43,193 nucleotides of DNA from the NCBI GenBank assembly GCA_021772705.1, contig JAJFLN010000112.1:1-43193 (forward strand). Reading direction: 5' to 3'. This document shows, one piece after another, positions 87-36,573 of this stretch (positions are counted from its first letter, which is position 1; every line of letters starts with the position of its first letter). The position numbers and the translations under genes are program-made. Origin of the DNA: Candidatus Cloacimonadota bacterium (GTDB lineage Bacteria; Muiribacteriota; UBA6191; JACPRK01). The notes under the pieces are model-generated. The model made no database searches and was not told the DNA's origin. It saw only the letters and a program-made list of their open reading frames with translations.

Positions 87-131
87 TTGGGGGAGCTGGC
101 TCCCCCAACGGGGTGTGGGGCTGAGCCCCAC
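87..131 (-). other. Two tandem GC-rich stem-loops downstream of the TPR gene (possible terminator or REP-like structure)
   Basis: TTGGGGGAG-CTGG-CTCCCCCAA (87-108, 9-bp stem) and GTGGGGC-TGA-GCCCCAC (115-131, 7-bp stem), 37-80 nt beyond the stop at 168. No U-tract follows on the minus strand. Confidence 0.35.
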
Positions 132-167: not shown

Positions 168-911
168 CTAAGGGGCCATCTCCGAGAGCTTCTGCCGGGC
201 CGTCACGTTCTCGGGATCCAGGATCTGGATGTTCAGCAAGATGTTCCTGGCTGAATCGGGACGCTCCCGGTCGATCTCAATCAATGCAAGCTCGGTCAGA
301 TAGGGAACATCGGTTGGATAGAGCACGAGCATGGCGTTGACGACGAAGGCTGCCTGCTCCAGCTTATTCTGGGGCCGGAGAGCTTGTGCGAGACGCAGGT
401 TTCCGTAGTAGCTCGCGGCATCGATCTGCAGGATCTGCCGGGCCAGCACCTCAGTCTCCTCGAATCGCTGCTGGGCCATCATGGGCAGCAGACAGCCGAG
501 CTTGGCCTCGATGGACTGGGGCGCGATCTGGATGGCCCTTTGGTAGTGCAGCTCGGAGTTGGCGAAGTTCCCCTTCATGTAATACAGCCAGCCCAGACGA
601 AGGTTGATCGTGTAGCCCCTGGGATAAGCCTTTCGGATGGGCAGAAGGACCTTGATGGCGTCAGCGTAATTCTGGGTCTTCTCGTATCGATAGGAGCTGC
701 TGTAGCCCCGTCGAATGTCCCTGTCGCTGAAGTCTGCCTGGGCCGTCGCCGTTGACAGCAGGAGGCCCGCGGTCAGGAGGAGAAAGAGCGCGAGCCTGAG
801 AACGGCAGCACCCCGGAGGCGTCTATCTTCACGGGGCTCGGTGTCAGAACGAATGCCCGAGACTGACTGAGAATCCGTCGACGTTGGAATCTGCGGTCTG
901 GGCGATATCAT
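168..911 (-). CDS. TPR-repeat protein with hydrophobic N-terminal signal/anchor
   Basis: ORF 168..1043. Hydrophobic AAVLRLALFLLLTAGLLLSTATAQA is followed by TPR-like helical repeats (YADAIKVLLPI, GNFANSELHYQRAIQIAP, EEAERLARQIL-type). No ATG/GTG/TTG exists after the upstream stop at 844, so ATG 911 (68-nt overlap with the upstream gene, no SD) is the nearest start. Start uncertain. Confidence 0.6.
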   Translation of the reverse strand: MISPRPQIPTSTDSQSVSGIRSDTEPREDRRLRGAAVLRLALFLLLTAGLLLSTATAQADFSDRDIRRGYSSSYRYEKTQNYADAIKVLLPIRKAYPRGYTINLRLGWLYYMKGNFANSELHYQRAIQIAPQSIEAKLGCLLPMMAQQRFEETEVLARQILQIDAASYYGNLRLAQALRPQNKLEQAAFVVNAMLVLYPTDVPYLTELALIEIDRERPDSARNILLNIQILDPENVTARQKLSEMAP

Positions 912-1707
912 TGAAGAGTTCTCGAGTGTACTTGAAGCGGATTGACGTTGCGTCTTCCAGGGCGATCTTGATGTCAGCACCATAGCCGCCAGTATGCCGC
1001 TCAGCGAGATTGTAAACCGTGAAGCCCCCATCGCGCACGGCAAAAGCCTGCGTTCCGGACCATCCGTATGCCGAGAAGGTCCAGGGCTGCCAGTAGAAGG
1101 TGAGCCGCTGCTCGACGGAGCGGAAGTCCTGCCTGCCGAGACCGATGTCGTCGTCGAGATGAACCCAGTAGCCAGTCAGGTCAGTCCGGAAGGTGAAGTC
1201 CTTCTCCTCCGTGACGGTGTATCCGATGTGAGGTGTGAACTGGAGGGCGGAGATCTCCGGTACGGCGTCGGCATATTTGGAGTAGTAGATGTCGGCTCCC
1301 ACGTCCCACTTGTTCAGCTCGTAGTAGTGGGCGCCCACGATACCGGTCCACCCATCGCTGGCGAAGACGCCGTCGGCGCTGACGATGTGTCCGCCGAACC
1401 GGAACTTCCAGTTCGGGACCGAGAAGTTGCTGTACACCGTCGTGTAGTCTCGCTGGGTGTACTTCCCTCCGCCGACCAGGTCGATTGTCAGTTCGTCATA
1501 GGACACCTCGACCAGGTCTTCCAGGCCGAAACCGAAGTAGCCATAAATCCCGTAGAACGCGGCGTTGTCCTTGGCGATGGAGTTGTCATAGTCAAGGGAT
1601 CCTGCATAGGCGATGGCGTCTACCCGGGTCTCCTCCGCTTCGACGGGGGTGGCCATGAACAGGGTCAGAACCAGCAGGAACAGTAGCTCAGGCTTCTTCA
1701 ATTTCAA
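844..1707 (-). CDS. Outer-membrane beta-barrel protein (porin-like) with signal peptide
   Basis: TTG starts at 1707 and 1701 lie behind GAGGAG. Signal peptide KKPELLFLLVLTLFMATPVEAEE. Aromatic/Gly-rich alternating strand pattern. The C-terminus ...SVSLGHSF ends in Phe, as in OMP beta-signals. Confidence 0.65.
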   Translation of the reverse strand: MKLKKPELLFLLVLTLFMATPVEAEETRVDAIAYAGSLDYDNSIAKDNAAFYGIYGYFGFGLEDLVEVSYDELTIDLVGGGKYTQRDYTTVYSNFSVPNWKFRFGGHIVSADGVFASDGWTGIVGAHYYELNKWDVGADIYYSKYADAVPEISALQFTPHIGYTVTEEKDFTFRTDLTGYWVHLDDDIGLGRQDFRSVEQRLTFYWQPWTFSAYGWSGTQAFAVRDGGFTVYNLAERHTGGYGADIKIALEDATSIRFKYTRELFNDIAQTADSNVDGFSVSLGHSF

Positions 1708-3754
1708 TTCTCCTCAACTCCAGTTCTTCGCTCCAGATTCGGTACATTCCAGGCTTGTCGCCCAGGGTCACCTCGATTTTCTCATCCAGGTCCAGGAACG
1801 CCGACTCCACCTGGGTCTCAAATTTGTTCTTCGACAGGAAACGGGAATGGGTACGGACTTCGGCGAAGGGAGGATGGAAGGACCCGAGGAATCGGGCCGC
1901 CTCACAACGGACGCCTGAAGAGGCGACACCGGCGGGCACGAAGTCATGCCAGGCCAGTCCATCCCGGTGTACGAGCGGTATCCGGGACATGGCCTTGAAG
2001 ATCAACTGCAGCCTGTCGTCGTTGCCCTCGAGGCTCTGGAAGTAGAACGTTCCTTCGTGCTTCCCGAAGAAGAGCTTCCCGTCATCGGAATCGAGATAGT
2101 AACTGCCGGCAGGCGACATCCGGACCGTCAGGCGCAGGAACTCGGCATTCTTCCCATGTCTCTTCACCTGGAAGTCGAACTGCTGATCGAGGATGAAGCA
2201 GGTCAGCCGGTCGAGGTGGCGATCGATGCTGAGGGGTTCGATCCGATCGTTCTCCTCCGGCGTGGCGTTGGCGTGATGGTGCTCGCCATCAGTGTAGCTG
2301 GCAAAGCTGAAGGGCAGGGTCCGGGCCCCCAGTCTCTCCTCTGCTTGGACCTGAACGTGAATGTGCGGTTGCGGCGAATGGCCCGAGTTGCCGCAAAGGC
2401 CGAGGAAGGTGCCTCGCTCCACCCAGTCGCCTTGCTTGACGGCGACGGAATTCTGCGCCAGATGCGACAGCTCGACGTGGAAACCTCTGGGATCATGGAT
2501 GACGATGGCGTTGCCCCAGTTGTTGATCCTGTCCACGTCACCCACATTGTTGTCCGGCAAGTCGCTCACGATGTTGATGATCCTGCCCCGTACCGGTGAG
2601 AGCACGGGCTTGCGATAGGCGTGGTAGTCCTTCAACTCCGTTCCGGCTCCTCGGAAGGTCTCTCCATCGGTGCCGGTGATCACGAAGTCATAGGCATACT
2701 TCCAGTTTCCCTTGTGCGTCCATCTCCCGTTGAAGCCCTGCCAGACTGTCCACTTGCCGGCGAAAGGAAGGGCGAGAATCCTGTCACTTCCGGTGTATCG
2801 GGCTTTCATGGAGAGGTGCTGATCGAGGGTTTCCTCAGGGGTCTTCTTTATGTATCGGGCGATCAGGGGGCTTCCCAGCAGTCCCAGGACATAAATCATC
2901 GTCAACGAGATCATGTTGAAGGGCAGAGTGAAGGCGGGAATACCGTAGCTGGACCAGAAAACCATGGTGGCATCGAGAAGGATCGTGGAGATGACGACGG
3001 CGATGACCGCAAGGCCGTAACTTCTGGGGGAAGGAATGAGGAAGACCCCTCCCAGTGCCATGGCGATGAGGATGAAGTTGAAGCTGTTGATATCGGCGAA
3101 GGCCTGGACGCTGGACCCGAGCAGAAGCCCTCGTATCAGCGTCCCGGTTCCGTATCCGATAACAGCCAGAAGGGTCAGTATCCGGGACCGGCAGAAGATG
3201 AGCAAGAGGAGCAGGAGGCCCGTCACGGAGTCCGGCGAGAAGAGGATCGCCCCAAGAGACTTCAAGAATCCCGATAGCCAGCCGGGCAGGTCGAAAGGCA
3301 TGGGAAGTGGCTGCTCCCGAGAACCGACGACGAAGAGGTTCGAGTACCGAAGCGATGCTAGATAGCTCAGGGAACTGACCAGGACGAAGGGGACGCTGAG
3401 TATCGGGAGTCCCAGATAGGTGGAGAACAGGTTGGCCAGGCTGATGGTGACCACCAAGGTCAGGACGCCAGCGCTGCAGACTAGAAAGGCCGTCAAGGGA
3501 GAGAACTGGAACAGACTGCCGAGAGCAAGACCGACCAGAAGCGGGTTGTAGGTGTAGTAACCGGTGCTCAGGAACTCCTTCTCCAGGTTGATGAGCCTGG
3601 CGAAGGCGTAGGCGGCGACGACGGCCAGCATGCCAGCAGCGGCCATGCCGGGCCGCAGGAGCAGCAGGGCGAACATCACCGCTCCCAGGGGTAAACCCTG
3701 CAGGAACAGCAACTCGGAGTAGCTGTTCAGGATGGCGAAGAAGTGGGCTTTCAC
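1688..3754 (-). CDS. Urea-transporter-like membrane domain fused to an M23 (LytM) metallopeptidase domain and an unassigned ~200-aa C-terminal domain
   Basis: UT-like polytopic N-half (ILNSYSELLFLQG..., GYYTYNPLLVGLALG). Intact M23 motifs (ELSHLA, GNSGHSPQPHIHVQVQ). The maximal ORF reaches 3874 but overlaps the upstream gene by 80 nt. GTG at 3754 (read from sequence) lies just before the first TM segment and after the upstream stop at 3795. Confidence 0.75.
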   Translation of the reverse strand: MKAHFFAILNSYSELLFLQGLPLGAVMFALLLLRPGMAAAGMLAVVAAYAFARLINLEKEFLSTGYYTYNPLLVGLALGSLFQFSPLTAFLVCSAGVLTLVVTISLANLFSTYLGLPILSVPFVLVSSLSYLASLRYSNLFVVGSREQPLPMPFDLPGWLSGFLKSLGAILFSPDSVTGLLLLLLIFCRSRILTLLAVIGYGTGTLIRGLLLGSSVQAFADINSFNFILIAMALGGVFLIPSPRSYGLAVIAVVISTILLDATMVFWSSYGIPAFTLPFNMISLTMIYVLGLLGSPLIARYIKKTPEETLDQHLSMKARYTGSDRILALPFAGKWTVWQGFNGRWTHKGNWKYAYDFVITGTDGETFRGAGTELKDYHAYRKPVLSPVRGRIINIVSDLPDNNVGDVDRINNWGNAIVIHDPRGFHVELSHLAQNSVAVKQGDWVERGTFLGLCGNSGHSPQPHIHVQVQAEERLGARTLPFSFASYTDGEHHHANATPEENDRIEPLSIDRHLDRLTCFILDQQFDFQVKRHGKNAEFLRLTVRMSPAGSYYLDSDDGKLFFGKHEGTFYFQSLEGNDDRLQLIFKAMSRIPLVHRDGLAWHDFVPAGVASSGVRCEAARFLGSFHPPFAEVRTHSRFLSKNKFETQVESAFLDLDEKIEVTLGDKPGMYRIWSEELELRRIEIEEA

Positions 3755-3794
3755 GGTGAAACCGAGAGGCTGAAAGGCCGGGACCCGATGGACT

Positions 3795-5180
3795 TCATCC
3801 GGTCCGGGACGCTGTCGGCCGGGACTTCGGGTAGACACGCAGCCGATCGGGCAGACGTTCCCTCCGGGCGACATCTGTCAGGTCCTCCGCTTCTCGGATG
3901 ACCTCTACCCTCCCATCTTCGCCAACGAGGACGACGTTGGGCCGATACTCGATGAACTGGAGCCACTGGGTGTTGTTGTAGGCGCCGACGGGAGTGAAGA
4001 TCAGCCGGGTTCCGCGAGACAGGGGAGGCAGTAGGGTTCCCTCGTCGATGGCGTCAATGTTCATACACATGGGGCCGTAGACCACTGATGTCTCGTTTGG
4101 ACCCGAGGCGGGACGATCGAGGGCCACGTCGAACTTGTACCAGAATGACGTAAACAGCAGGTTGATACCGGCGTCGGCGACGTAGGCTCGGGTCCCGTCC
4201 GGAAGCCGTTTCGATGCCCAGATGGTGGTGATCAGCGAACCGGCGTCATCGATCAGGGCCCGTCCGGACTCGAGAATCAGCTTCGGGAAGTGATTCGGCT
4301 TCAGGTTCTTCCAGAGGGCCTCGCAGATCTCCTCGGCATACTCATCGAGGGATGGGATTCCCACATCGGGAGACAGGTAGGTGCCCTTGAGGCGGATCTT
4401 TGACGGAAACCCGCCCCCGAGATCGAGATACTCGATCTCGAATCCGAACTCCTCTTCCACCCGGTAGGCGAACTGGATCATCTTCTCCACTTCCCGGGCG
4501 TAGGCCTTCGGCTCGAGAATGAATGTCCCGATGTGGCAGTGGAGCCCGCCGAGAGCGAGCTTGCCGCCCTTGGCCATGCGCTTGACCGCATCCATGGCCT
4601 GTCCCGACTCCAGGTTCATTCCGAAGCGGGACCACTGGGGGTAGATCCCGGTGTTCATGTTGAGCCGCATGCCGACGGTGAGCTTCTTGCCCAGCTTGTC
4701 GGCGACCTTCTCGAGGTCGTAGATCTCGTCGAAGTGATCCAGATTGACGGTCACTCCATCAGCCAGCACCGTCTCGAGGGTCTCCATCGGCTTATGGGGG
4801 CCGTTGAGGATGATCTGATCTCCAGGGATGCCCAAGTCCTTGGCCTTCTCGTACTCCATCTGTGAGACGAGCTCGGCCATGGCTCCTTCCTGATGGAAGA
4901 TCGCGCAGATGGCCTTCAGATAATTGGTCTTGTAAGACCAACCGAATGCCACGTTGGGGTAACGGGTGGAGAAGGAGGAGTAGGTCTCCCGATACTTTTC
5001 GCGCAAGGTCTTCTCGGAGAAGACGAACAGTGGGGAGCCAAACTCCTTGACCAGGTCGTCGACGGCCACGCCATCGATGTGGGTTGTGACTTTGCGGGCA
5101 TAGAGAGGGCTTTGGCCAAACTTGTTCATCATGCCGCTCTCAAGTTTCCGTATCAGAGGGCGGATGTATTCTCGCTTCAC
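3795..5180 (-). CDS. PLP-dependent decarboxylase, Orn/DAP/Arg decarboxylase family (fold type III)
   Basis: Motifs WSYKTNYLKAI (PLP-Lys), GLHCHIGT, LDLGGGFP, GPMCMNID. GTG start at 5180 with GGGGAGAG 5 nt upstream. One nt separates it from the ATP-grasp stop. Confidence 0.85.
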   Translation of the reverse strand: MKREYIRPLIRKLESGMMNKFGQSPLYARKVTTHIDGVAVDDLVKEFGSPLFVFSEKTLREKYRETYSSFSTRYPNVAFGWSYKTNYLKAICAIFHQEGAMAELVSQMEYEKAKDLGIPGDQIILNGPHKPMETLETVLADGVTVNLDHFDEIYDLEKVADKLGKKLTVGMRLNMNTGIYPQWSRFGMNLESGQAMDAVKRMAKGGKLALGGLHCHIGTFILEPKAYAREVEKMIQFAYRVEEEFGFEIEYLDLGGGFPSKIRLKGTYLSPDVGIPSLDEYAEEICEALWKNLKPNHFPKLILESGRALIDDAGSLITTIWASKRLPDGTRAYVADAGINLLFTSFWYKFDVALDRPASGPNETSVVYGPMCMNIDAIDEGTLLPPLSRGTRLIFTPVGAYNNTQWLQFIEYRPNVVLVGEDGRVEVIREAEDLTDVARRERLPDRLRVYPKSRPTASRTG

Positions 5181-5181
5181 T

Positions 5182-6228
5182 TCAACTCTCCCCTCGGGTG
5201 ACGATCTTCTGGAAGACCGTCAGGTCTGTTACCAGCTCGTAGGTGTAGCGGACGAAGAGCTTGCCGGCTTCGTAGTCAGCTGCAATGTCCACCGGATCCC
5301 CCATCGCTTTTCTTACCAGGTTCGCAGCCAGGTTATGTCCCACACCGGTGGAGAAGTACGACCAGGCCGGGAATCGGGGGTTGATCTCGATCAAATAGAT
5401 CTGACCCTTGCTGCCGATGATGCACTCGAGCTCGAAGGGGCCTCGCCACTGGGTGTGAGTCATCAGGTCCTGCGTGGCCTTCAACATCCCATCGTGGCGC
5501 ACGGTCATGCCGGTCCAGATCTTGCCCTGGGAGGTGATCCAGCTCTTCTTGATGCCCACCAGTCCCAGGTGACCGCCTTCACCGTCTCCGACACCCACCA
5601 CGTTCAGCTCCTCGCCGGTTACCACTTCCTGAATGATCACCGGGTAACCCCACTCGTTGGCCAACTCCTGGAAGTGAGCTATCGCCTCCTGCCGAGTGTA
5701 GGCTCGCTTCGCCTTGTAGAAAGTGCCCTTCACCATCACTGGAAGTTGCAGTTCCTCCAGGCAGGGGATCAACCGGTCCGGTGAAGAGACGACCCGGGTC
5801 TCCGGCACGTCGACCTCGATGGCCTTCGCCAGATCCGGCAGATTGTCCTTGCCACGAAGCTGGAACTGCTTCCGTGTCGGCAGGAAGCTCTTGATCCCGG
5901 CTTTCTCGAGATCCCTGGCATACTTGATGTAGACAGGCAGCTCTGAATCGAGGTTGGGAATCACCACGTCCAGGCCAAAGTTCTGTTTGATGTAGAGGAG
6001 CCGCTCCACCAGCGCTTCGCCTCCCCCTGATGGGTAGGGCATGATAAACGACCGATCGATGATCCAGTCCATGTAGATGCCCGGTTCCATGGCATCGTAG
6101 GCGAGACCGAGCACCTCGATGTCGAGACCCTCGGCCTCCTTCAGGCTCCGGGCAACTCCGGCACCAGGACCAGGATTGTCGACGGCATTGATTCCCGAGA
6201 CAGCGACCGTTAGCTTGGCTGCGGCCAT
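5182..6228 (-). CDS. ATP-grasp family carboxylate-amine ligase
   Basis: ATP-grasp core (PVMVKG, VIIQEVVTGEE, YLIEINPRFPAW). ATG 6228 lies 2 nt after the PqqD-like stop (TGAGGATG). The ORF track uses TTG 6234. Confidence 0.8.
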   Translation of the reverse strand: MAAAKLTVAVSGINAVDNPGPGAGVARSLKEAEGLDIEVLGLAYDAMEPGIYMDWIIDRSFIMPYPSGGGEALVERLLYIKQNFGLDVVIPNLDSELPVYIKYARDLEKAGIKSFLPTRKQFQLRGKDNLPDLAKAIEVDVPETRVVSSPDRLIPCLEELQLPVMVKGTFYKAKRAYTRQEAIAHFQELANEWGYPVIIQEVVTGEELNVVGVGDGEGGHLGLVGIKKSWITSQGKIWTGMTVRHDGMLKATQDLMTHTQWRGPFELECIIGSKGQIYLIEINPRFPAWSYFSTGVGHNLAANLVRKAMGDPVDIAADYEAGKLFVRYTYELVTDLTVFQKIVTRGES

Positions 6229-6230
6229 CC

Positions 6231-6467
6231 TCAAATCACCCCGTAGGATCGCAGGCGCTCACAGAAGTCGCCCAGGTCGCGTTCAGCTTCCTCGGGTCCG
6301 ATGTCATAGGTCTCCACCAGGCCATTGATGATCTCAGCCGCCGGCACCTCAGCCGTGAGCCCCTTCAGAATGAACTGACCTGTCTCGTTGACAACGAAGC
6401 TGTCGCCGGTGGAGGGATCAAAGGCGAAACCCTCATCGTTCAGCGCCAGTGACGAAAGCTTGGACAT
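6231..6467 (-). CDS. PqqD-family small protein (peptide-chaperone / RRE-like fold)
   Basis: 78 aa. The pattern FVVNETGQFILKGL...AAEIINGLVETYDIGPEEAERDLGDFCERLRSYGVI matches the PqqD-family layout (LNxTGxxIWxxL ... DVxxFLxxLxxxGLI). Strong SD GGAGAGGAG upstream. Confidence 0.7.
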   Translation of the reverse strand: MSKLSSLALNDEGFAFDPSTGDSFVVNETGQFILKGLTAEVPAAEIINGLVETYDIGPEEAERDLGDFCERLRSYGVI

Positions 6468-6704
6468 CCAACCATCTCCTCTCCCGAATGGCAGGTCCCG
6501 TGGGAGACTGCGGACATCTGCCTGGGCTGCCCGAAAGGGCCGTTGCGACTCAGGGGTCGTTGAGAGGGTACCGTGCCAGCCTCACAGGGGGATTGCAACA
6601 ACCGATTGAACCCTACCGTTGATCCGGCGTCATTCGGAGGTAGACTATCTCTTGTGACACCAGTCTCCCTGGTGCGACATGGATGAAGGTTCGAAGAGGG
6701 CGTC

Positions 6705-7421
6705 ATGGAATTGACCGAGAAAACCCCGCGAAGCTGGAGAACCTGGTTGCCGGCAGCCAAGTTTCTCCTGTGGGTGACACTTGTCCTGTCCATTGCTGTG
6801 ACAGGATTGATCAGGGTCGGAACGGGAGAGATGCCGGACCCGGTGTCGATTCGCCGGCAGATCGACGGTCTGGGTAGTTGGGCGCCCCTGCTGTTCGCCG
6901 GGATGCTGACGTTTCGGCCATTCCTGTTTCTTCCCAGTTCGATCGTGATGATGGGGGCCGGTCTTGCCTTCGGTCCCGGACTCGGAGCGCTGGTGACCAC
7001 CTTCGGCCTGATGCTGGGAGCCTTCACGACCTATCTACTGACCCGGTTTCTGGGCTACGAATTCGTTCATCAGAGAGGGGGCCGGAGGCTGGAGAAGCTC
7101 TCTCAGGACATGGGGCCCGGGTTCGTCCTGATCATGAACATGATTCCGATCATGCCCCTCACCCTGCCGAATTACCTGGCAGGTCTGGCAGGTGTGCCCC
7201 CCCTTCAATTCATGGCAGCGACGTTTCTGGGGCTTCTGCCCAGAGTCTTCGCATGGACGACGATGGGGAACATGCTAGTGGAGCGAAACTGGTTCGTCAT
7301 CCTGCCCGCTTCGCTGCTTCTCCTGATACTCATGGCGATCCCTCTGGCCTTCCCGTCGGTCAGGAGATACCTGCGGGAGCTGAAGAATGCAAGTCCAGAG
7401 CCAGTGGAAGAGTTGCCCTGA
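6705..7421 (+). CDS. DedA / TVP38-TMEM64 (SNARE-associated) family membrane protein
   Basis: Polytopic protein. FRPFLFLPSSIVMMGAGLAFGPGLGALVTTFGLMLGAFTTYLLTRFLG is typical of the family. Confidence 0.75.
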   Translation: MELTEKTPRSWRTWLPAAKFLLWVTLVLSIAVTGLIRVGTGEMPDPVSIRRQIDGLGSWAPLLFAGMLTFRPFLFLPSSIVMMGAGLAFGPGLGALVTTFGLMLGAFTTYLLTRFLGYEFVHQRGGRRLEKLSQDMGPGFVLIMNMIPIMPLTLPNYLAGLAGVPPLQFMAATFLGLLPRVFAWTTMGNMLVERNWFVILPASLLLLILMAIPLAFPSVRRYLRELKNASPEPVEELP

Positions 7422-7430
7422 TCCAGGATC

Positions 7431-8309
7431 TCAGGGCTTGGACTTCAAGGCTCGGCGGATCTCTTTCACAGCTTGCCGAGGATCCACTACACCGGTGGAC
7501 ACTTCCAGTCCCCGGCGCTGAAGTTGCATCAGGACCTGGACCCAGACCGGTGGCCGCAGCCCGGCCCGGATCAAGATGTCCGGGTCTCCGTAGACATCGG
7601 CTGGCCGGGCGGAAGCGACGAGGCGTCCTCGAGACATGATGAGGAGCCTGTCCACCAGGGAGGCGAGCATCTCCATGTCGTGACTGATGAGAATCACCGT
7701 CCGGCCCCCTTCCCGTTGTAGACCCTGGATGTGGTTCAACAGCTGAGTCCGGCCGGAGGAGTCGAGACCCGCCGTGGGCTCGTCGAAGATCAGCACATCA
7801 GGCTCCATGGCCAGTAGACTGGCGATGGCGACCCGGCGCTTTTCGCCGCCCGACATCTCGAATGGAGAGCGGGACAACGTCTCCTGCTCCGGCAGACCGA
7901 CGGCCTGAAGCGCATCGCGGACTCTGCGATCAATCTCCTGAGGATCAAGCATCAACTGCTTGGGGCCGAAGGCGACTTCTTCGAATACGGTTCTCTCGAA
8001 TATTTGGTCCTCGGGCTGCTGAAAGACCAGGCCGACGGAGGTGGAAGGATTGCCGGCATCGATTCCCTCGCCGTACTCGATCTCCCCAGAGCTGTAGTCG
8101 AGCAACCCGCAGAGAGTCTGAACGAGAGTGGACTTTCCGGACCCTGTGGAGCCGACGATCCCGAGCAGGTCCCCGGCCCCGATATCGATGTTGACACCTT
8201 CGATGGCGGCGGTCTCGAAGGGGGTCCCTTCCAGGTAGATGACCGAGATGCCTCGGGCTCGAACCATTGGCGCCGGCGGGGCCTGTTCCACACCGTTGGA
8301 TGCGGTCAT
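7431..8309 (-). CDS. ABC transporter ATP-binding protein, EcfA2-like
   Basis: Walker A GSTGSGKST, signature MSGGEKRR, Walker B LIFDEPTAGLD, H-loop ISHD. The FQQPEDQIF motif is typical of ECF/CbiO ATPases. Confidence 0.85.
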   Translation of the reverse strand: MTASNGVEQAPPAPMVRARGISVIYLEGTPFETAAIEGVNIDIGAGDLLGIVGSTGSGKSTLVQTLCGLLDYSSGEIEYGEGIDAGNPSTSVGLVFQQPEDQIFERTVFEEVAFGPKQLMLDPQEIDRRVRDALQAVGLPEQETLSRSPFEMSGGEKRRVAIASLLAMEPDVLIFDEPTAGLDSSGRTQLLNHIQGLQREGGRTVILISHDMEMLASLVDRLLIMSRGRLVASARPADVYGDPDILIRAGLRPPVWVQVLMQLQRRGLEVSTGVVDPRQAVKEIRRALKSKP

Positions 8310-9271
8310 GATGAGGGTAGACCTGCCCGGTCCGCCACGGCGTCAGCGAGCAACCTGGGCCGAAGGTCGTCCAGATCACCCAGGAGGTTCGCCTGTTTCA
8401 ACTCGTGGTACAGCTGGGCAAGGGGGGGCAGATCGAGGCCAAGGCGGTCGAGAAGCGACGGGTCCTGGAAGAACTCGGTGCGGGGCCCGTCGAAGACGAT
8501 CCGGCCCCGGTCCATCGCGATGATCCGGTCGGCGCCCAGCAACTCTTCGAGCAGGTGTGTGATCTGGATGATCGTGATGCCTTGATTCACCTTCAGGTCT
8601 CGCGCGACCTGGAGCAGCTCCTCACGACCGGCGGGATCGAGCATGGCCGTGGCCTCGTCGAGGACCATGTGAGAGGGGCGCATTGCCAGGACTCCCGCCA
8701 CGGCCAGGCGCTGTTTCTGTCCCCCGGAGAGAGTCATGGGAGAGCGGCGAGCCAGCTCGGAGAGCCCCGTGTGTGACAGGGCCCATTCCACCCGTTCCTG
8801 AATGGCTTCGGTCTCGAGCCCCATGTTTTCGGGGCCGAAGGCGACGTCGTCCTCGACGATGCTTCCCACGATCTGATTGTCCGGGTTCTGGAATACCATC
8901 CCTACCCTCTGTCGGATGAGGGCCAGATTCTCGGGCCGGGCCGTGTCCAAGCCGTCGACGACCACTCGTCCCTGGCTCGGCACGAGCAACCCGTTGGTGA
9001 GCTTCGCCAGGGTCGACTTGCAAGACCCGTTGGAACCGACGAGGCCGATGTGCTCACCATCGACGATCTCGAGATCGACGTGGGCCAGCAACCGAGGGCC
9101 GCCGGGGTAATTGAAATGAACGTCGGAGAACTCGATCACTGGTTTCGGGTCCTCCGGTCGAGGGAGGGAGGGGTACAGAGGCAAGGATACATCACAAACT
9201 TCATGAGCATTGAGCCCGCAGACCATATAGCATGGGGGGAGATGCCCGTGATACGGGTCACCCGAATTCAA
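8306..9271 (-). CDS. ABC transporter ATP-binding protein, EcfA1-like
   Basis: Walker A GSNGSCKST, FQNPDNQIV, signature LSGGQKQR, Walker B MVLDEATAMLD. 4-nt overlap with the downstream ATPase. The N-terminal ~45 aa may be over-extended (alternative start at 9226). Confidence 0.8.
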   Translation of the reverse strand: MNSGDPYHGHLPPCYMVCGLNAHEVCDVSLPLYPSLPRPEDPKPVIEFSDVHFNYPGGPRLLAHVDLEIVDGEHIGLVGSNGSCKSTLAKLTNGLLVPSQGRVVVDGLDTARPENLALIRQRVGMVFQNPDNQIVGSIVEDDVAFGPENMGLETEAIQERVEWALSHTGLSELARRSPMTLSGGQKQRLAVAGVLAMRPSHMVLDEATAMLDPAGREELLQVARDLKVNQGITIIQITHLLEELLGADRIIAMDRGRIVFDGPRTEFFQDPSLLDRLGLDLPPLAQLYHELKQANLLGDLDDLRPRLLADAVADRAGLPSS

Positions 9272-9370
9272 GGATACTCGGGTGCCGGAAGAGTCCCACC
9301 CGGATCGGGTCCCGTCGGGTCATGAACAGAAACAGCGGGCCCCGGAGCAGGTAGTGATCCCCCCAATCGA

Positions 9371-12082
9371 ATGCGAGCGAAGCTCCTCTTCAATATCGCG
9401 GAGGTCGTCCTCCACAGACCTTATGTGATGCTTGCCCTGGTGGCTAGCATCACCCTGGGTTGCATCGCCTACTCCTCGTCTCTCCCATACAGTTCGAGCC
9501 GGATCGACCTGATTCCTCCGGATCATCCCGCCAGAATTCAATTCCTGGAGGTGGTCAAGGAGTTCGGTCCCCAGAACTCGATTGTCGTCGTCGTCGAGGG
9601 AGGCGGCCAGGACCGGCGCCGCCAGTTCATCGAGACCTCCTCGGGCCGGCTCAAGTCGGACCCGGAGTTCCGGGGCACGATCCTGGATCGAATCGACCTG
9701 CAGCCCATGCGCAGTCGCGGTCCTTACTATCTGGAGCGGGATCAACTGACGACCATGTTTGCGGACATCCAGGAGAACGAGCCCTTCCTGGATGCATTGC
9801 CGGACTTGGGAATGGCCTTGCGGGCCATGAATCGCCGCCTCGAGGCTACGAGGAACCTGGGGTACAACGCCCTCGAGAAGATCATCCCCAATTGTGAAAA
9901 GATAGGACTGCTGTTCAAAAACATGAACCAGCAGCTCGGCGGCAAGACCCTGGATCGCAAGAGCTGGGAGAGCTTCCTGGGGGTCGGGCCCATCTCCGCC
10001 CTCGAGCTGTTTGACGAGGCAGGGTTCCTGGCCTCCAGGGACGGGTCCACCCATTTCGTCTTCCTGACGCCGGATCGGCAGAGTGAAGAGCTGGATTATC
10101 TGGTTCCCCTGGTGGCGCGAATCAGGGGCCACCTGTCAGCGGCCGAAAGTCCCGGTTCCCCGGTTCAGTGGAGTCTGACCGGGATTCCAATCTCTGTCCT
10201 CGACGAGTTCGAGAGCACCGAGAAGGATCTGCCTCGATCCACTGCTGCCGCTATTCTCGCGAACATCCTGATCTTGCTGATCGGACTTCGCCATCGTCCC
10301 CTTCTGGCTCTCATTGCCATGCTCAGCCTCGGCGCTGGCATCGCCTGGACCCGGGCATTCGCCAAGCTGACCGTGGGCTACCTGAACCTGGTCTCCTCGG
10401 TTTTCATCCTGTTCCTGCTTGGGATGGGCATCAACTACGGCATCTACTTCGCCACCCGGTTCGACGTTGAGAGGCGCAGGGGTCTGGACCTGCAGACCGT
10501 GATGAGAAAGGTCTTCCGCGAGCAGGGCAGAGGGATCTTGACTTCTGCTCTGGCCGGGAGCCTGGCATTCTTCACACTCTGTCTGTCCCCTTTCAAGGGT
10601 TTCCAAGAGCTGGGTCTGATAGCTGGAACGGGTCTGATTCTCTGCCTCGTGGCAGGGACCCTGCTCATGCCTCCCCTGATCTTGCTGATAGGCAAGCGGG
10701 TCGAGACGAGTTACCCCGTGGAGCGGCATATCTTCCGGCGAATCGTCAGGGCCGTCGAGAGCCATCCCTACCGGCTCGTTGCCCTGTTCACGGCTCTCAC
10801 TCTCTACACGGCCAGCATCGGAGATCTCTTTCCCTTCGACTACGATCTGAATCGAATGCTGCCTCGCGGGGCAGAGTCCCTCGTGGCGGGCGAAAAGCTC
10901 CGTGCAGCCCGAACTCTGTCACCGTTATCGGCGATCGTCGTCTGTGATGACCTGGAAGAGCTCTACAGGAAAGACAAGTACTTGCGAGCCCGGAGCGATG
11001 TGGGTCTCACTCTCTCCTGGGCGACATTCGTCCCGGCGGGGCTGGACCAGAAGCAGAAACTCCTGGCGGACCTTCGTCATCACCTGAGACGGAATCTGGC
11101 AGTGGAGGAGACCGCTGAAAACCAAGACGAGCGGCAAATCGGACGCCAGCTGGACGAGCTGGAGACCAGTCTGGCGAACTCCCTGGAACTGTTTCGTGCT
11201 CTGCAGTTCGCACGGGAGGCGCAGGCGGCGGAACAGGCCCATGATGAGGTGACAAGTTTCCGGGAGACACTGGCCCGTCTGCCGAAAACAGGCCGGTCAA
11301 CTCAGCTTTCAATCCTGGGAACTCAGCTGCACAACAGCTGGCAGGATCTGGCCACGGAGGTCGAGGAATGGGCCCAGATCAAACCACCGAGTGACGATCT
11401 GGTACCCGAGGGCCTGCGTCGACGCCTGCGGAGTGAAGGGGGCCGTTATGCCCTGATAGTCAGTCCAGCCGCCGACATCAATCAGAAGCAGGCCTTCGAG
11501 CGGTTCCACGCCGCCGTGTCGGAGGTGGACCAGGACCCGACCGGATATCCTGTGATCATCCACACCATGATCGGGCTTCTGCCTCAGGTGCTTCAGGAGG
11601 TCATGGTCGAGGCTCTCCTCCTGATCGCGGCGTTGCTGATCCTGGACCTGCGTAATGTTCGGCGCCTGTTGCTGACCCTGTTCCCTGTGGTGGTCGGCTC
11701 CATCTGGCTCATGGGACTCATGAAGTTGATGGGATTGAAGTACAACCCCGTGAATTTCCTGGCCTTGCCGATGATCCTCGGCATCGGGATCGAGAACGGG
11801 GTGAACTTCGTCCACGGCTTCCGGGACGAGGACAGCGCCGAGGCTCTGGAGACCCAGGGCCGGGGAATGTTGCTGTCGGCTGGCACCAGTATCGTCGGTT
11901 TCCAGGCCCTGGCCCTCGTATCCCACCGCGGACTGGCCAGCTTTGGCCTACTGCTCACTCTCGGAACTCTGACCTGTCTGGTCGCCTCTCTGTTCTTCCT
12001 GCCGGCGGTGGTGGAGATCGAGTCTCGCAGGGCTCAAATCTTCTCCTGGCTGCGGAACCTGATGGGACATCGGTTCTATTGA
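9371..12082 (+). CDS. MMPL / RND-superfamily transporter (HpnN-like lipid exporter)
   Basis: 903 aa. Two TM bundles, each preceded by a large soluble loop. Conserved GINYGIYFATRF and GIGIENGVNFVHGF motifs. Paralogue of 16802..19543. Confidence 0.8.
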   Translation: MRAKLLFNIAEVVLHRPYVMLALVASITLGCIAYSSSLPYSSSRIDLIPPDHPARIQFLEVVKEFGPQNSIVVVVEGGGQDRRRQFIETSSGRLKSDPEFRGTILDRIDLQPMRSRGPYYLERDQLTTMFADIQENEPFLDALPDLGMALRAMNRRLEATRNLGYNALEKIIPNCEKIGLLFKNMNQQLGGKTLDRKSWESFLGVGPISALELFDEAGFLASRDGSTHFVFLTPDRQSEELDYLVPLVARIRGHLSAAESPGSPVQWSLTGIPISVLDEFESTEKDLPRSTAAAILANILILLIGLRHRPLLALIAMLSLGAGIAWTRAFAKLTVGYLNLVSSVFILFLLGMGINYGIYFATRFDVERRRGLDLQTVMRKVFREQGRGILTSALAGSLAFFTLCLSPFKGFQELGLIAGTGLILCLVAGTLLMPPLILLIGKRVETSYPVERHIFRRIVRAVESHPYRLVALFTALTLYTASIGDLFPFDYDLNRMLPRGAESLVAGEKLRAARTLSPLSAIVVCDDLEELYRKDKYLRARSDVGLTLSWATFVPAGLDQKQKLLADLRHHLRRNLAVEETAENQDERQIGRQLDELETSLANSLELFRALQFAREAQAAEQAHDEVTSFRETLARLPKTGRSTQLSILGTQLHNSWQDLATEVEEWAQIKPPSDDLVPEGLRRRLRSEGGRYALIVSPAADINQKQAFERFHAAVSEVDQDPTGYPVIIHTMIGLLPQVLQEVMVEALLLIAALLILDLRNVRRLLLTLFPVVVGSIWLMGLMKLMGLKYNPVNFLALPMILGIGIENGVNFVHGFRDEDSAEALETQGRGMLLSAGTSIVGFQALALVSHRGLASFGLLLTLGTLTCLVASLFFLPAVVEIESRRAQIFSWLRNLMGHRFY

Positions 12083-12837: not shown

Positions 12838-14844
12838 ATGTCGAAGGTGGCGGCACGAGCCTCGGAGGAACTGTCCCGTTTGCAGGGCAGAATCGGCCGC
12901 TCGCTCATGCTCTCTGGCTTGGTCCTGGTCCTAGGTCTAGCTCTGGGTCTTCCCCTGGTCGGTCTCCTGGTGCAGAAGGTGACCGTCGCCCGTCTTGACG
13001 GCGCCGCCTTCCAGATCGAATGCGCCGGACTCAAGACCCATCTGGTTCAGGCCATACCAGTCGGGCTCGATCGATACCGTCTCTACTTCGTGCTCCTCGA
13101 TGGTAAGAACGCGCCGGTCCGGTCGTTGCGACGGGAGAGCATTGGCCTTTCGGCTGAACCGGTGGGTCCTGTTGACGATTTTGATCTGACGGCAGCAGCC
13201 AAGGATCCGCTGACACTGCTCGTGGCTGTCGATACGAGCAACGAGATGACACTCGACAATCGAATGGGCGCTGTACAGGACGGTGTCCGGGAGTGGCTAC
13301 AGGGCCTGGAGGTATCCCGGCTGGGACTGATTTCATTCGGGAACCAGGCCCGGGTAGAGCGGGAAGTCGACATCAATAGGCCCCGATTCCTGAGAGCTCT
13401 GGATCGAGTCATCGCCGGAGGCGAGCGGGCCATGTATGACGCCGTGGCCTCCTCCGCAGGCCAGGCCTGGGGCCTGAATTCACGCTCTGCTCTGGTCTTG
13501 ATCACCAGCGGAGAAGACCGTTCCAGCAAGGTCCGTCTCACGGAGGCAGCATCCCGAGCCCGCAACTCGTCGCTTCCGGTCTTCGTCGTCGGTGTGGGCC
13601 CTAAGGTCCCGCGAGCGTCGCTGGAGAAGCTTGCCGTCGAGACTCGCGGGCGGGCTTTCTTTGCCCCCACTTTTGTTGACTTACCATCGACGCTGACCGC
13701 CGTGTCGGAGTGGCTCACGGCGGAGTTCCGGATTCAGGTGCCTGCCGTGCTGCCCTGGGCGAGGGCCCCGATCTGGATCGCTGGTTCCATGGGCATCTGC
13801 GCCCTGTTCCTGATCGTTCTTTATCTTTCCGTGACCCGCTGGCTAAAGCTCCCTCGTCTCGTCGTTCTCGGAGGGCCCAAGCACGGCACGTCAGTTCACC
13901 TGGCCTCGGACATCATTGTCTGCGGCAGTGATCCGGGATGTCACCTGCAGGTACCGGGGGATCCGAAGACCACGGCCGGACGAAGATTCGCCATGGAGCG
14001 GCGAGGGGGCGTGGTGTCGTTCCACCTGCTGGATCCCAGCGGGGGTACTGCCGTGAACCGAGCCGTCGTGGAGTCACGCGACCTGATGACGGGGGACATC
14101 ATCAAGGCCGGCCTGGCCCGATTCGTGTTCTTCCGCTACGAGTCGCAAGGCAACTGGGGAGGGCTGGGAGGCGCCCCAGGGACCTCTGCCAGCCAGCGGG
14201 TCCAAAAAGTTTGCTGGCTCGTCTCCTCCGATGGGGGACCGGCTTTCGCTGTAGAGCGGGACAGAACCCGGGTCGGCCGGGAGCCGGACAACGAGATCGT
14301 CCTGGAGGACCCGTCGGTCTCCCGACGGCACGCAGAGTTCATACGGACCGAAGAAGGACTGTTCATCGCCGACCTGGGAAGCCGGAACGGCACCTATCTG
14401 GAGAAGTCGCGAGTGGGTTCTCAGGCCCCGCTGTTCGAGAACACTCGTCTGCGGTTCGGCCGTGTGAAGTTCCGGATCAAGCTGGAGCCTCCCGGCGAGG
14501 AGCTGAGCGACGCGGAGGAAATCGGAGTTGCGGCGATAGCCTCCATCGAGTCTGCTGATGGAAACATCGACGACACGGCGCCTGACATGATGCAGGAGCG
14601 AAGAGCTGGCCAGGACGACCCGGCAGGGCAGGCATCACAGGAGCCAGTGGACCCTGTGGATCGGCCTGATCTGCCCGATGTCGGGGGAGAGCAGAAGCCC
14701 GGCGGCGCTGACACCCTCAGCTGCCCCGTATGTAGTCATATCAATCGAACAACGGCGAAGTACTGTACACAGTGCGGAGAAAAGCTGACGCCGGCAGTCG
14801 GACCCGATTCGAAAGGCGAACGGGACGATCTCGCCGGCGAGTGA
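12838..14844 (+). CDS. Membrane protein: N-terminal anchor, vWA domain, TM segment, two FHA domains, C-terminal zinc ribbon
   Basis: vWA LLVAVDTSNEM...LVLITSGEDRSS...VFVVGVG. TM WIAGSMGICALFLIVLYLSV. FHA-like LVVLGGPKHGTSVHLASDIIVCGSD and canonical RVGREPDNEIVLEDPSVSRRHAEF...GSRNGTYL. CPVCSHINRTTAKYCTQCG. Confidence 0.8.
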   Translation: MSKVAARASEELSRLQGRIGRSLMLSGLVLVLGLALGLPLVGLLVQKVTVARLDGAAFQIECAGLKTHLVQAIPVGLDRYRLYFVLLDGKNAPVRSLRRESIGLSAEPVGPVDDFDLTAAAKDPLTLLVAVDTSNEMTLDNRMGAVQDGVREWLQGLEVSRLGLISFGNQARVEREVDINRPRFLRALDRVIAGGERAMYDAVASSAGQAWGLNSRSALVLITSGEDRSSKVRLTEAASRARNSSLPVFVVGVGPKVPRASLEKLAVETRGRAFFAPTFVDLPSTLTAVSEWLTAEFRIQVPAVLPWARAPIWIAGSMGICALFLIVLYLSVTRWLKLPRLVVLGGPKHGTSVHLASDIIVCGSDPGCHLQVPGDPKTTAGRRFAMERRGGVVSFHLLDPSGGTAVNRAVVESRDLMTGDIIKAGLARFVFFRYESQGNWGGLGGAPGTSASQRVQKVCWLVSSDGGPAFAVERDRTRVGREPDNEIVLEDPSVSRRHAEFIRTEEGLFIADLGSRNGTYLEKSRVGSQAPLFENTRLRFGRVKFRIKLEPPGEELSDAEEIGVAAIASIESADGNIDDTAPDMMQERRAGQDDPAGQASQEPVDPVDRPDLPDVGGEQKPGGADTLSCPVCSHINRTTAKYCTQCGEKLTPAVGPDSKGERDDLAGE

Positions 14845-35153: not shown

Positions 35154-35217
35154 CAGGTTCACCACCTGTTTCCCATGATCTTTCTGGACGTAGACCTGAT
35201 CCTCTACATCCTCTACC

Positions 35218-35965: not shown

Positions 35966-36573
35966 CCTCCACCTCCCAGGGACCGGTAGGGATCTCCCAG
36001 GACGGTTCGAAGCTCCACATGCTGTTTCTTCTGAACCTCGCCGGCGTTGCTGGATCGCCTGACGGTCCATTCGACTCGGATGATGACGGTCAGGGTCTTC
36101 TCCCGCCGCACGCTGCCCGTGGGGGCGCTGGGATCCGCCGGGGCCCCACCGCCAGAGTCTCGGATGGCGAAGTAGCGAATGTAGTAGTCCTCCATCGGCG
36201 GCACGATGGGGTCGTCGCTGGCAAAGAAGGCCTTCTCGAAGGAATCCCAGGCCTTGAGCTGATCATTGGTGGGGGCGTCCGAGGAAATGGGCGCGAAGAG
36301 AACCTCGTCCAGGGACTGAGGGACGCCCCACTTGCCCTTTCCCAGCTGCTGCATGATGGGTGGAAACTGGCTGACGGCGTCGAATCCGACTGCCCGGATC
36401 GCCTCGATCAGGTTGGAGGCATGGTTGGTGGCCTGAACCTGGCTGACGGTCAACCGCGCCGTCTGGGTGCTGCCGGACATGACCCAGAATATGGGAATGA
36501 TCCCTGCGAAGAGGATGATGATCCCGATGAAGAGCTCCAGGAAGCTGAAGCCTTGATTTCGGCGCTGCTGCAT
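35962..36573 (-). CDS. Prepilin-type N-terminal motif protein (minor pseudopilin-like)
   Basis: MQQRRNQG|FSFLELFIGIIILFAGIIPIF has Gly-1, Phe+1 and Glu+5. TGATG overlap with the upstream 1106-aa gene. Confidence 0.7.
   Translation of the reverse strand: MQQRRNQGFSFLELFIGIIILFAGIIPIFWVMSGSTQTARLTVSQVQATNHASNLIEAIRAVGFDAVSQFPPIMQQLGKGKWGVPQSLDEVLFAPISSDAPTNDQLKAWDSFEKAFFASDDPIVPPMEDYYIRYFAIRDSGGGAPADPSAPTGSVRREKTLTVIIRVEWTVRRSSNAGEVQKKQHVELRTVLGDPYRSLGGGG

Follow-up and report, generated by a model that had tools for sequence, protein, structure and literature searches.

A conserved six-gene cassette joining a PqqD-like protein, an ATP-grasp ligase and a fold-III decarboxylase to a urea-transporter–M23 fusion and an outer-membrane module

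Why should a PqqD-like protein, an ATP-grasp ligase, a fold-III pyridoxal phosphate (PLP) decarboxylase, a urea transporter (UT) domain fused to an M23 peptidase, an outer-membrane β-barrel and a tetratricopeptide repeat (TPR) protein be encoded side by side? Six such genes lie adjacent to one another, head to tail, at positions 168-6467 on the minus strand of a stretch of 43,193 nucleotides from a Candidatus Cloacimonadota bacterium (contig JAJFLN010000112.1), which is referred to here, at its full length, as the window. The list of open reading frames (ORFs) bears out the coordinates and the common strand given in the initial annotation, which had taken the six genes to be one unit. Comparison with other genomes confirms that they form a real, widely shared cassette and not a chance arrangement, and the proteins themselves suggest what such a cassette may do.

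A cassette shared by many phyla

When the six proteins were searched by tblastn against 28 loci, 22 of these had enough upstream DNA (at least 3.5 kb), and in all 22 the four genes of the core, PqqD-like, ATP-grasp, decarboxylase and UT::M23, stand in the same order on one strand. A scan of one genome per species gave 26 loci, and two further long contigs show the same core order. The barrel and TPR genes lie downstream in 18 loci; a few have either of the two genes upstream instead. TPR orthologues follow the core in most diderm loci, and neither gene was found in the two Anaerolineae loci (L007 and L016). When all remaining ORFs of at least 30 amino acids in 29 loci were compared with one another, no further shared neighbour family emerged. 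Since the core order recurs in 22 of 22 loci and no other family is common to the flanks, the arrangement is not a matter of chance, and the single unit first proposed is upheld. Because synteny is kept while the flanks are unrelated, the genes are seen as a self-contained cassette, a four-gene core with a two-gene outer-membrane module, that moves between phyla.

The core is found in more than 10 phyla. Carriers among the cassette loci include Aquificota, Ignavibacteriota, Verrucomicrobiota, Planctomycetota, Wallbacteria and Calditrichota, as well as Thiotrichaceae/Thiomargarita, Desulfobacterales, Aminicenantes and Anaerolineae. Among the matches listed there are more than 100 distinct relatives of the UT::M23 protein at 50-58% identity, all of about 690 residues and with both domains, from Wallbacteria, Verrucomicrobiota, Calditrichia, Persephonella, Planctomycetota, Melioribacteraceae and others. 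Homologues above threshold number about 1,100 for UT::M23 and about 1,900 for the ATP-grasp protein. Two carriers, Persephonella sp. IF05-L8 and Hydrogenothermus marinus, are cultured; in the former (GCA_000703045.1, JNLJ01000001.1, about 1,112,000-1,118,500) all six genes stand between a hydrogenase gene and a uvrB that contains an intein. The features of the cassette in the window, read in the direction of transcription, are as follows.

6468-6704, minus strand: 5′ intergenic region or leader of 237 nt, shared with a divergent VTT/DedA-family gene; presumed cassette promoter region
6231-6467, minus strand: PqqD-like gene, 78 aa; start from the ORF
5182-6228, minus strand: ATP-grasp gene, 348 aa; start from public gene call P0121
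3795-5180, minus strand: fold-III PLP decarboxylase gene, 461 aa; start from the N-terminus conserved in 24 orthologues
1688-3754, minus strand: UT::M23 fusion gene, 688 aa; GTG start as in public gene call P0001
2855-3754, minus strand: UT membrane domain of the fusion, residues 1-300
2267-2854, minus strand: K/R-rich TPEETL linker and M23 domain of the fusion, residues 301-496
1688-2266, minus strand: C-terminal domain (CTD) of the fusion, beta-rich, residues 497-688 plus stop
844-1701, minus strand: outer-membrane barrel gene, 285 aa; gene call P0241
168 to about 911, minus strand: TPR gene, 247 aa from the first ATG at 911; start uncertain
87-131, minus strand: two G+C-rich stem-loops directly past the TPR stop; possible transcript 3′ end, on weak evidence

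The junctions are tight, and those at 6228-6233, at 5181 and at 1688-1707 are just as they had been read. The TGA of the PqqD-like gene (6233-6231) is separated from the ATP-grasp ATG at 6228 by the 2 nt GG, and that of the ATP-grasp gene (5184-5182) by one base from the decarboxylase GTG at 5180. A 40-nt gap lies between the decarboxylase stop (3795) and the GTG at 3754 that opens UT::M23; the ATG of the longest UT::M23 ORF, at 3874, is not the start in the public gene call. The UT::M23 stop (1688) overlaps the possible TTG starts of the barrel gene, by 20 nt for the one at 1707 and by 14 nt for the one at 1701. The TPR start is uncertain because its first ATG (911) overlaps the barrel gene, which stops at 844, by 68 nt; the longest TPR ORF begins at 1043.

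The cytoplasmic proteins

In Pfam and NCBIfam profile scans of all six proteins, none attains a curated NCBIfam cut-off and no named equivalog fits. The ATP-grasp protein has weak matches in these databases to ATPgrasp_Ter and PRK12767. Compared as a profile with the Protein Data Bank (PDB), it matches entry 2pn1 (2e-17), CPSase (1e-12), and then pyruvate and biotin carboxylases and PurD, and no RimK or LysX match at E ≤ 1 and no graspetide ligase is found. Judged by these matches, it belongs to the CPSase/PurD-like branch. The residues of its nucleotide and Mg motifs, K167, E268, E281-x-N283 and R285, are invariant. A graspetide-type (MdnB/C) ligase was considered and rejected on the profile matches and the lack of an adjacent precursor.

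The decarboxylase matches Orn_Arg_deC_N (E 3e-34) and Orn_DAP_Arg_deC (E 2e-9) in Pfam. Its best match in the PDB is 7kh2, the N-citrylornithine decarboxylase FslC/FigC (1.6e-53), followed by diaminopimelate (DAP) decarboxylase (about 1e-38) and BtrK (1e-19). In the active-site alignment the SYKTN, HCHIG, GGG, ESGR, GPMCMNID and GAY motifs are present and the PLP lysine is kept. Two loops differ from those of LysA. 'DAGINLLFTSFWY' stands in place of 'DAGMNDLIRPxxY', so that the DAP-binding Arg is replaced by Thr, as in FslC, and 'CMNID' stands in place of 'CE[ST]GD', with a CM-x-x-D loop common to FslC. The active-site motifs and both loop replacements are invariant in 24 orthologues. Whether the enzyme groups with LysA had been set as a test beforehand; it does not, since its TIGR01048 score of 210.6 falls short of the 297.9 cut-off and both the DAP-binding Arg and the CE[ST]GD motif are lost, and a housekeeping LysA identity was rejected on the score and the active site. 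It also scores 211 against a cut-off of 500 for the NCBIfam FslC model NF041039, although FslC is its best PDB match. The enzyme is closest to the FslC/FigC type, and activity on N-acyl-amino acids is predicted from its sequence. The subfamily defined by FigC uses amino acids with an acylated distal amine and does not serve polyamine synthesis (PMC7857480). The first 25-30 residues (Y-E-x-P-x-I-x-K...MNKFG) are unusually conserved, with Y5, R7-P8 and NKFG19-22 kept in the 24 orthologues; this segment could be a docking site for the PqqD protein. Based on their invariant catalytic motifs, both cytoplasmic enzymes, like the M23 domain described below, look active.

The identification of the 78-residue protein as PqqD-like holds, since it passes the Pfam PF05402 model (E 6e-13, 49.3 bits against a cut-off of 23.4, profile positions 4-67 of 67). 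Its best NCBIfam matches are to PqqD chaperones of the lasso, ScmD and HPr-rel-A types, none of which reaches its cut-off: 35.4 against 70 for lasso B1, 32.7 against 100 for ScmD and 28.9 against 35 for HPr-rel-A, with 18.9 against 46 for the PqqD of pyrroloquinoline quinone (PQQ) synthesis. The orthologues are 41-58% identical and share the motif LA-x-N-x-EGF-x-FDP-x-TG-[DE]-S, and the N-terminal sheet region is conserved. Their C-termini are variable, ending in L, I, A, Y or C, and are not acidic, and a LysW-type carrier was rejected on these grounds; because the last residues vary, a LysW-like role is unlikely. It could instead serve as an adaptor for another protein or for a peptide, or belong to the ligase or the decarboxylase as a subunit.

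The initial annotation had found no acyl carrier protein (ACP) and no convincing precursor peptide, and indeed neither is found in the cassette or in the 29 loci. Small ORFs of at least 8-12 residues were checked upstream of pqqD and in the gaps within the cassette, and those of at least 30 residues were compared all against all. This search yielded lineage-specific ORFs, repeats resembling repetitive extragenic palindromic (REP) elements, an assembly duplication in L017 and inserted selfish genes only. In Persephonella there are 79 nt upstream of the cassette, which leaves no room for a precursor ORF, and the PqqD/ATP-grasp, decarboxylase/UT::M23 and post-TPR junctions are of 10-18 nt only. 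A precursor peptide encoded in cis was therefore rejected, both for want of a conserved ORF and for lack of space in Persephonella.

The envelope proteins and the surroundings of the cassette

The N-terminal part of the fusion protein is a clear UT domain (PF03253, E 1.4e-58, positions 3-290 of 292), with PDB matches to UT-A1, dvUT and UT-B down to 6e-43, and is followed in the same chain by Peptidase_M23 (E 3.5e-10). Against the Yut equivalog it scores 110, below the cut-off of 274.6. Urea recognition in UT-A2 is described by the motif Q-V-Y-T / Q-V-F-T (PMC11589576). The cassette protein has E14-L/I-Y69-S120 and A/T169-I-F225-T276 instead. Relative to hUT-A2, Y123, F287, T338 and F341 are conserved as Y69, F225, T276 and F279, while Q67 is changed to E14, T176 to S120 and Q231 to A/T169. 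The pore thus keeps Y(3a), F(3b), T(5b), the flanking Phe residues and the LPxxTxPF repeats, and the Q-T-T-Q relay becomes E14-S120-T276-A/T169. Judged by its pore residues, the permeant is best described as urea-sized and polar, and it may be urea itself, because dvUT also has a Glu in the relay.

The M23 domain scores 40.4 bits in PF01551, against a cut-off of 28.7. H347, D356, H431, H464 and H466 are invariant in 33 homologues, and an alignment with TagE and lysostaphin covers the 'HL' and 'PHxH' motifs, so the domain looks catalytically competent by these residues. On which side of the membrane does it work? The initial annotation had supposed a periplasmic peptidase component, which the topology of the UT domain, the linker and natural fusion proteins contradict. 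The linker is rich in K/R (6.2 per 48 residues), and no extra transmembrane helix follows it. In hUT-A2 it is the N-terminal helix, Pa, that builds the cytoplasmic pocket for urea (PMC11589576). Three long homologues (P0250, P0273 and P0275; 1073-1085 aa) consist of UT, M23 and CTD followed by an Arg-rich stretch, one transmembrane helix and two TPR modules of the kind found in the cassette. The TPR of these fusions should lie outside, because free-standing TPR proteins carry signal peptides, and the M23 domain and CTD should lie in the cytoplasm, because the single helix must carry the TPR part outward. The M23 domain is thus very probably cytoplasmic, a predicted location that sets it apart from murein endopeptidases such as MepM, ShyA and LytM. 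A further homologue (P0266, 1029 aa) has a truncated CTD, then several hydrophobic helices, TPR repeats and helices again; it may represent a different architecture or else a wrongly assembled sequence.

Relatives of the same M23 subfamily, tethered to the membrane through a 'TPE'-type linker, occur in Thermus and haloarchaea. Haloarchaea have no murein, and a classical role in peptidoglycan is disfavoured because relatives of the subfamily occur in them. Together, the cassette domain and these relatives look like a distinct, unstudied M23 subfamily. Free-standing M23 proteins with the 'TPE' linker and a 'QRYAYD' motif are encoded on a Thermus plasmid (L029, 5803-6762) and a Haloferax plasmid (L030, 5653-7122); the gene contexts of such relatives in Thermus, Haloferax, Haloplanus and Listeria plasmids have nothing in common. 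The CTD is predicted by AlphaFold2 as a confident, beta-rich fold, with a predicted local distance difference test (pLDDT) score of 92.3. It has no Pfam or PDB sequence match and a weak LolA/RseB/FABP-like resemblance only. In a search of 1.84 billion representative proteins it occurs almost only at the same position of UT::M23 proteins of about 690 residues.

The barrel protein has a signal peptide, a weak Pfam match to OMP_b-brl and a C-terminal Phe (...GHSF). Its AlphaFold2 model, built on an alignment of four sequences, has 14 strands (pLDDT 76) and resembles OmpG best (TM-scores 0.67/0.69, against 0.51 for BcsC), so it is modelled as a 14-stranded, OmpG-like small pore. The most conserved stretch, residues 220-241 (Q-x-FAVRDGGF-x-VYNL-x-E-x-H-x-GG), is in a low-confidence loop of the model and may be a constriction or plug. 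A Slam/DUF560 barrel was rejected, since none of 15 barrel homologues matches the DUF560/Slam Pfam model at E ≤ 1. The TPR protein matches several TPR families in Pfam, weakly also PgaA and TPR_Slam, and has a hydrophobic signal segment (...LFLLLTAGLLLSTATAQA). In four Verrucomicrobiota loci a single fused protein contains both a TPR domain (E 1e-30 to 1e-37) and the barrel (E 1e-45 to 1e-55), and a second TPR gene comes next. The comparison with AlgK/AlgE or PgaA/BcsC in the initial annotation is correct in that TPR and barrel are coupled, but the barrel is modelled as 14-stranded and OmpG-like. Because UT-M23-CTD-TM-TPR (where TM is the transmembrane helix) and TPR-barrel fusions both exist, the inner-membrane protein, the TPR protein and the barrel can be regarded as one trans-envelope unit, and the suggestion of a route from cytoplasm to outer membrane is backed by these natural fusions.

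Small insertions and repeats are seen within several cassettes. The spacer between the PqqD and ATP-grasp genes holds tandem palindromic REP-like repeats in a metagenome-assembled genome (MAG) of Thiotrichaceae (L015, 7390-7570) and 'CTAATCA/CTAATTA' simple repeats in Verrucomicrobiota MAGs (L010, 7090-7300; L013, 5460-5620). Loci of the Melioribacter type have an extra small gene, selfish in appearance, between those for the decarboxylase and UT::M23; it encodes 95 residues, GIY-YIG-like by eye, in L005 (5145-5432) and L023 (5664-5951), and an unrelated 130-residue protein in L026 (9555-9947). The cassette tolerates insertion at this junction. In L017 an identical second copy of PqqD with the first 128 ATP-grasp codons (4709-4951 and 5606-5848) lies 0.9 kb upstream and is probably an assembly duplication.

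Outside the cassettes, neighbours that occur at one locus each, namely aspartate kinase with aspartate-semialdehyde dehydrogenase, MurJ with Amt, and Ni/Co uptake genes in Persephonella, were for that reason rejected as functional hints. The first of these pairs, whose enzymes catalyse the entry steps to DAP, lysine and diaminobutyrate, comes directly after the cassette on one contig (L031, 12721-14971). The uvrB gene upstream of the Persephonella sp. IF05-L8 cassette (L027, 3713-7261) contains an intein with a LAGLIDADG endonuclease (PF14890, PF14528). An anti-phage defence system was considered and rejected, since none of the six proteins matches a PADLOC defence model.

In the window itself, the leader at 6468-6704 has no sigma-70-like promoter match and no credible small ORF, and none that is conserved with other loci. 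A riboswitch or leader RNA was rejected there, since Rfam finds no family in the leader or elsewhere in the window and the leader RNA folds no better than shuffled sequences (z +1.0). At the other end, the centroid fold of 87-131 shows both hairpins, with an energy no better than shuffles (z -1.16) and without a T-tract. The divergent VTT/DedA-family membrane protein gene (6705-7421, plus strand; PF09335, E 1e-21) is not adjacent to the cassette in other loci. Beyond it, two neighbouring ATP-binding cassette (ABC) ATPase genes with a 4-nt overlap (7431-9271, minus strand) resemble the EcfA/EcfA' pair of an energy-coupling factor transporter, and a 270-residue ORF (9320-10132) lies upstream of them. 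Two large MMPL/RND-type membrane proteins of 903 and 913 residues (9371-12082, plus strand; 16802-19543, minus strand) have between their genes that of an FHA and VWA protein (12838-14844). Three long ORFs on the minus strand (29101-31488, 33753-35165 and 36573-39893; 795, 470 and 1106 aa) have no Pfam match at E ≤ 1e-5, and RecG is encoded near them at 26177-28639.

A possible pathway and its rivals

What could these proteins do together? The six genes may be one functional cassette, spread horizontally, in which the four-gene core works with a TPR/barrel outer-membrane module. Tentatively, we favour a pathway in which a small polar product is made by ligation and decarboxylation, freed by hydrolysis and exported through a channel; this is possible though short of probable. 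As its family suggests, the ATP-grasp protein would form an amide between a carboxylate and an amine, with a partner possibly presented by the PqqD-like protein. The decarboxylase, by its active-site similarity to FslC/FigC, would then remove the α-carboxylate of the conjugate; it would require a free α-amino acid end, as its nearest relatives use amino acids with an acylated distal amine. The M23 domain, with its catalytic residues intact and its predicted place at the cytoplasmic face of the UT channel taken from topology and fusions, would hydrolyse the amide and free a small polar product. This product would leave through the UT-type pore, in which most urea-lining residues are kept and E-S-T-A replaces Q-T-T-Q. 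The periplasmic TPR protein would couple the inner-membrane protein to the OmpG-like barrel, as the natural fusions support, and the product would cross the outer membrane, if the flow is outward as we suppose. A urea-sized amide or a short amine or diamine would be the most compatible product.

A bolder picture, which is rather doubtful, is that of a new trans-envelope machine: a trimeric UT-fold channel with its own cytoplasmic zinc peptidase, tethered by TPR to a 14-strand pore and fed by a PqqD-guided ATP-grasp and decarboxylase pair, so that a small amine or amide built on a carrier, which may be reactive or serve in signalling, would be released at the channel mouth and reach the outside, bypassing cytoplasmic and periplasmic pools. 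Such a machine would do for a small molecule, in more than 10 bacterial phyla, what peptidase-coupled export does for bacteriocins.

Several points weigh against the proposed export pathway. Every chemical step is read from family membership, and the outward direction of transport is likewise inferred. A cycle of ligation, decarboxylation and hydrolysis looks wasteful unless the scaffold has a purpose, and no precursor or scaffold peptide for the PqqD protein is conserved as a small ORF in the 29 loci. The changes in the pore are compatible with plain urea, since dvUT itself has Glu at the Pb relay position. The M23 domain has an unusual H-x8-D spacing, assigned by inspection, for which HMMER gave no alignment to canonical M23. 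A Foldseek search of the CTD against the PDB gives nothing below E 0.04 and no TM-score above 0.35, and the barrel model depends on its four-sequence alignment. In the Aminicenantes locus L021, from what is probably a diderm, neither the barrel nor the TPR gene was found in 3.7 kb downstream.

Each of the rival explanations accounts for fewer parts of the cassette. The canonical PqqD protein, whose best NCBIfam match is a lasso-peptide PqqD chaperone, and the presence of both a peptidase and an ATP-dependent ligase would suit a pathway to a ribosomally made, post-translationally modified peptide (RiPP) with its precursor encoded in trans. PqqD would bind the leader, the ATP-grasp protein would make a (macro)amide, the decarboxylase would tailor it and M23 would remove the leader, in a formal parallel to lasso-peptide logic (RiPP recognition element (RRE), protease, ATP-dependent amide synthetase) with non-homologous enzymes. 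Overlooked small scaffold ORFs have a precedent, for example fosfazinomycin FzmZ (PMC13622209). A RiPP is nevertheless unlikely: no conserved small ORF lies in or around the 29 loci and none would fit in Persephonella, the ATP-grasp differs from the graspetide type, a fold-III decarboxylase requires a free α-amino acid, and the sole membrane component is a urea-sized channel, unable to export a peptide. The same channel could work inward, since UT-family proteins are normally passive urea uptake channels and OmpG-like barrels usually serve uptake. A small amide or amine, urea or a relative, would then enter through barrel, TPR and UT channel and be captured by ligation, decarboxylation and hydrolysis, and the ATP-grasp protein is nearest to the CPSase/biotin-carboxylase group, which activates bicarbonate or carboxylates. 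However, the cassette has no linked gene for urease, allophanate hydrolase or any other nitrogen-assimilation function, and the fused cytoplasmic peptidase, the PqqD chaperone and the amino-acid decarboxylase have no obvious role in uptake. The Glu in the cytoplasmic pocket and the loss of a polar residue from the periplasmic one fit recruitment from inside. Uptake and assimilation are on these grounds improbable.

M23 enzymes typically cut Gly or mDAP bonds, and the NCBIfam matches of the M23 domain include MepM, ShyA and Pgp3. In the decarboxylase, precisely the residues responsible for binding DAP's free distal end are gone, which would be expected of an enzyme whose substrate is acylated there. 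Both observations would fit an editing of peptidoglycan precursors or recycled muropeptides in the cytoplasm, in which the decarboxylase would act on the free D-centre of peptide-bound meso-DAP, the ATP-grasp (with Ddl-like chemistry) and the M23 domain (at the D-Ala-mDAP bond, as in MepM and ShyA) would add or remove a residue, and TPR and barrel would tie the system to the envelope. This appears decidedly unlikely, as close M23-subfamily relatives occur in murein-free haloarchaea, no Mur, Ldt or recycling genes are linked, and the UT channel and the PqqD protein are left unexplained. The vibrioferrin pathway combines the PvsA ATP-grasp with the PvsE decarboxylase, and the cassette could similarly make a small metallophore or polyamine conjugate, in the manner of the NRPS-independent siderophore (NIS) pathways to rhizoferrin (FslA/FslC) and staphyloferrin B (SbnH). 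The decarboxylase is nearest to FslC/FigC and is paired with an amide-forming ligase, and a Ni/Co uptake operon (CbiM, CobW) adjoins the Persephonella cassette. Yet there is no NIS synthetase, TonB-dependent receptor or major facilitator superfamily or ABC exporter, a citrate-type chelator would fail to pass the UT pore, and flanking metal genes are not conserved at other loci, so that of these explanations this one has very little in its favour.

The favoured pathway of ligation, decarboxylation, release and export shares single features with several known systems. The rhizoferrin route (FslA/FslC, or FigA/FigC) and SbnH also combine an amide-forming ligase with an alanine-racemase-fold PLP decarboxylase for a distally acylated amino acid, but the ligase of the cassette is an ATP-grasp protein and not an NIS synthetase, the cassette has no siderophore transporter, and no NIS cluster is known to include its PqqD, UT::M23, TPR or barrel partners. 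PQQ, mycofactocin and pearlins are small molecules made on peptide scaffolds. These pathways and that of fosfazinomycin resemble the cassette in their modifying enzymes, their PqqD/RRE protein and their product-releasing peptidase, but their scaffold peptide is encoded in the cluster, whereas none is found at the cassette, and none of them is known to use an M23 peptidase, a UT channel or the pairing of an ATP-grasp with a fold-III decarboxylase. For ATP-dependent additions to a scaffold there is a precedent (PMC13622209). The carrier systems invoked in the initial annotation, LysW/LysX and BtrI/BtrJ/BtrK of butirosin, are similar in carrying out amino-acid chemistry on a protein-tethered substrate, and Btr also in the formal trio of small protein, ATP-grasp and fold-III decarboxylase. 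This analogy is not supported, since the cassette has no ACP, BtrK is a far weaker match than FslC (1e-19 against 1.6e-53), the ATP-grasp matches CPSase, PurD and 2pn1 and is not of the RimK/LysX type, and the variable PqqD tail has no conserved acidic C-terminus.

Other likenesses concern the envelope. M23 enzymes classically cut Gly-Gly, the motif that is also recognised by peptidase-containing ABC transporters (PCATs), in which a C39 peptidase is fused to an ABC exporter. By analogy, a cytoplasmic peptidase on a membrane conduit may couple cleavage with exit in both cases, but the cassette has M23 in place of C39, a passive UT-fold channel in place of an ABC pump, and a pore of urea size rather than peptide size. 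A periplasmic TPR coupled to an outer-membrane barrel, as in the Verrucomicrobiota fusions, is shared with PgaA, BcsC, AlgK/AlgE and the Slam or type XI secretion system; Slam, too, has a 14-strand barrel. The barrels of PgaA, BcsC and AlgK/AlgE have 16-18 strands as opposed to 14 in the OmpG-like barrel model, and no polysaccharide synthase or glycosyltransferase is encoded in the cassette; Slam differs in that the cassette has neither a DUF560 match nor a lipoprotein or hemophilin cargo gene. Urea transporters (dvUT, Yut and UT-A/UT-B) share the fold and the pore residues Y(3a), F(3b) and T(5b), but the cassette protein has an altered Q-T-T-Q relay and a fused peptidase and CTD, and is never beside urease in the loci examined.

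The architecture as a whole is without a described counterpart. No description of the cassette was found in the full-text literature, in which subscription journals are thinly covered so that an earlier account is possible, and neither a graspetide survey nor a structure-based RRE survey describes such a locus; within this literature, the initial view that the combination is not a described system stands. The cassette is nevertheless common, in thermophiles, sulfur bacteria, Verrucomicrobiota, Planctomycetota and candidate phyla, and the database labels 'urea transporter', 'diaminopimelate decarboxylase' and 'carbamoyl-phosphate synthase' are probably misleading for its parts. The natural fusions predict a complex of inner-membrane, TPR and outer-membrane proteins for a small molecule. 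If the proposed pathway is true, the UT fold would do more than take up urea, the M23 peptidase fold would act in the cytoplasm and apart from murein, and the PqqD protein would gain an unprecedented class of partner, an ATP-grasp with a fold-III decarboxylase.

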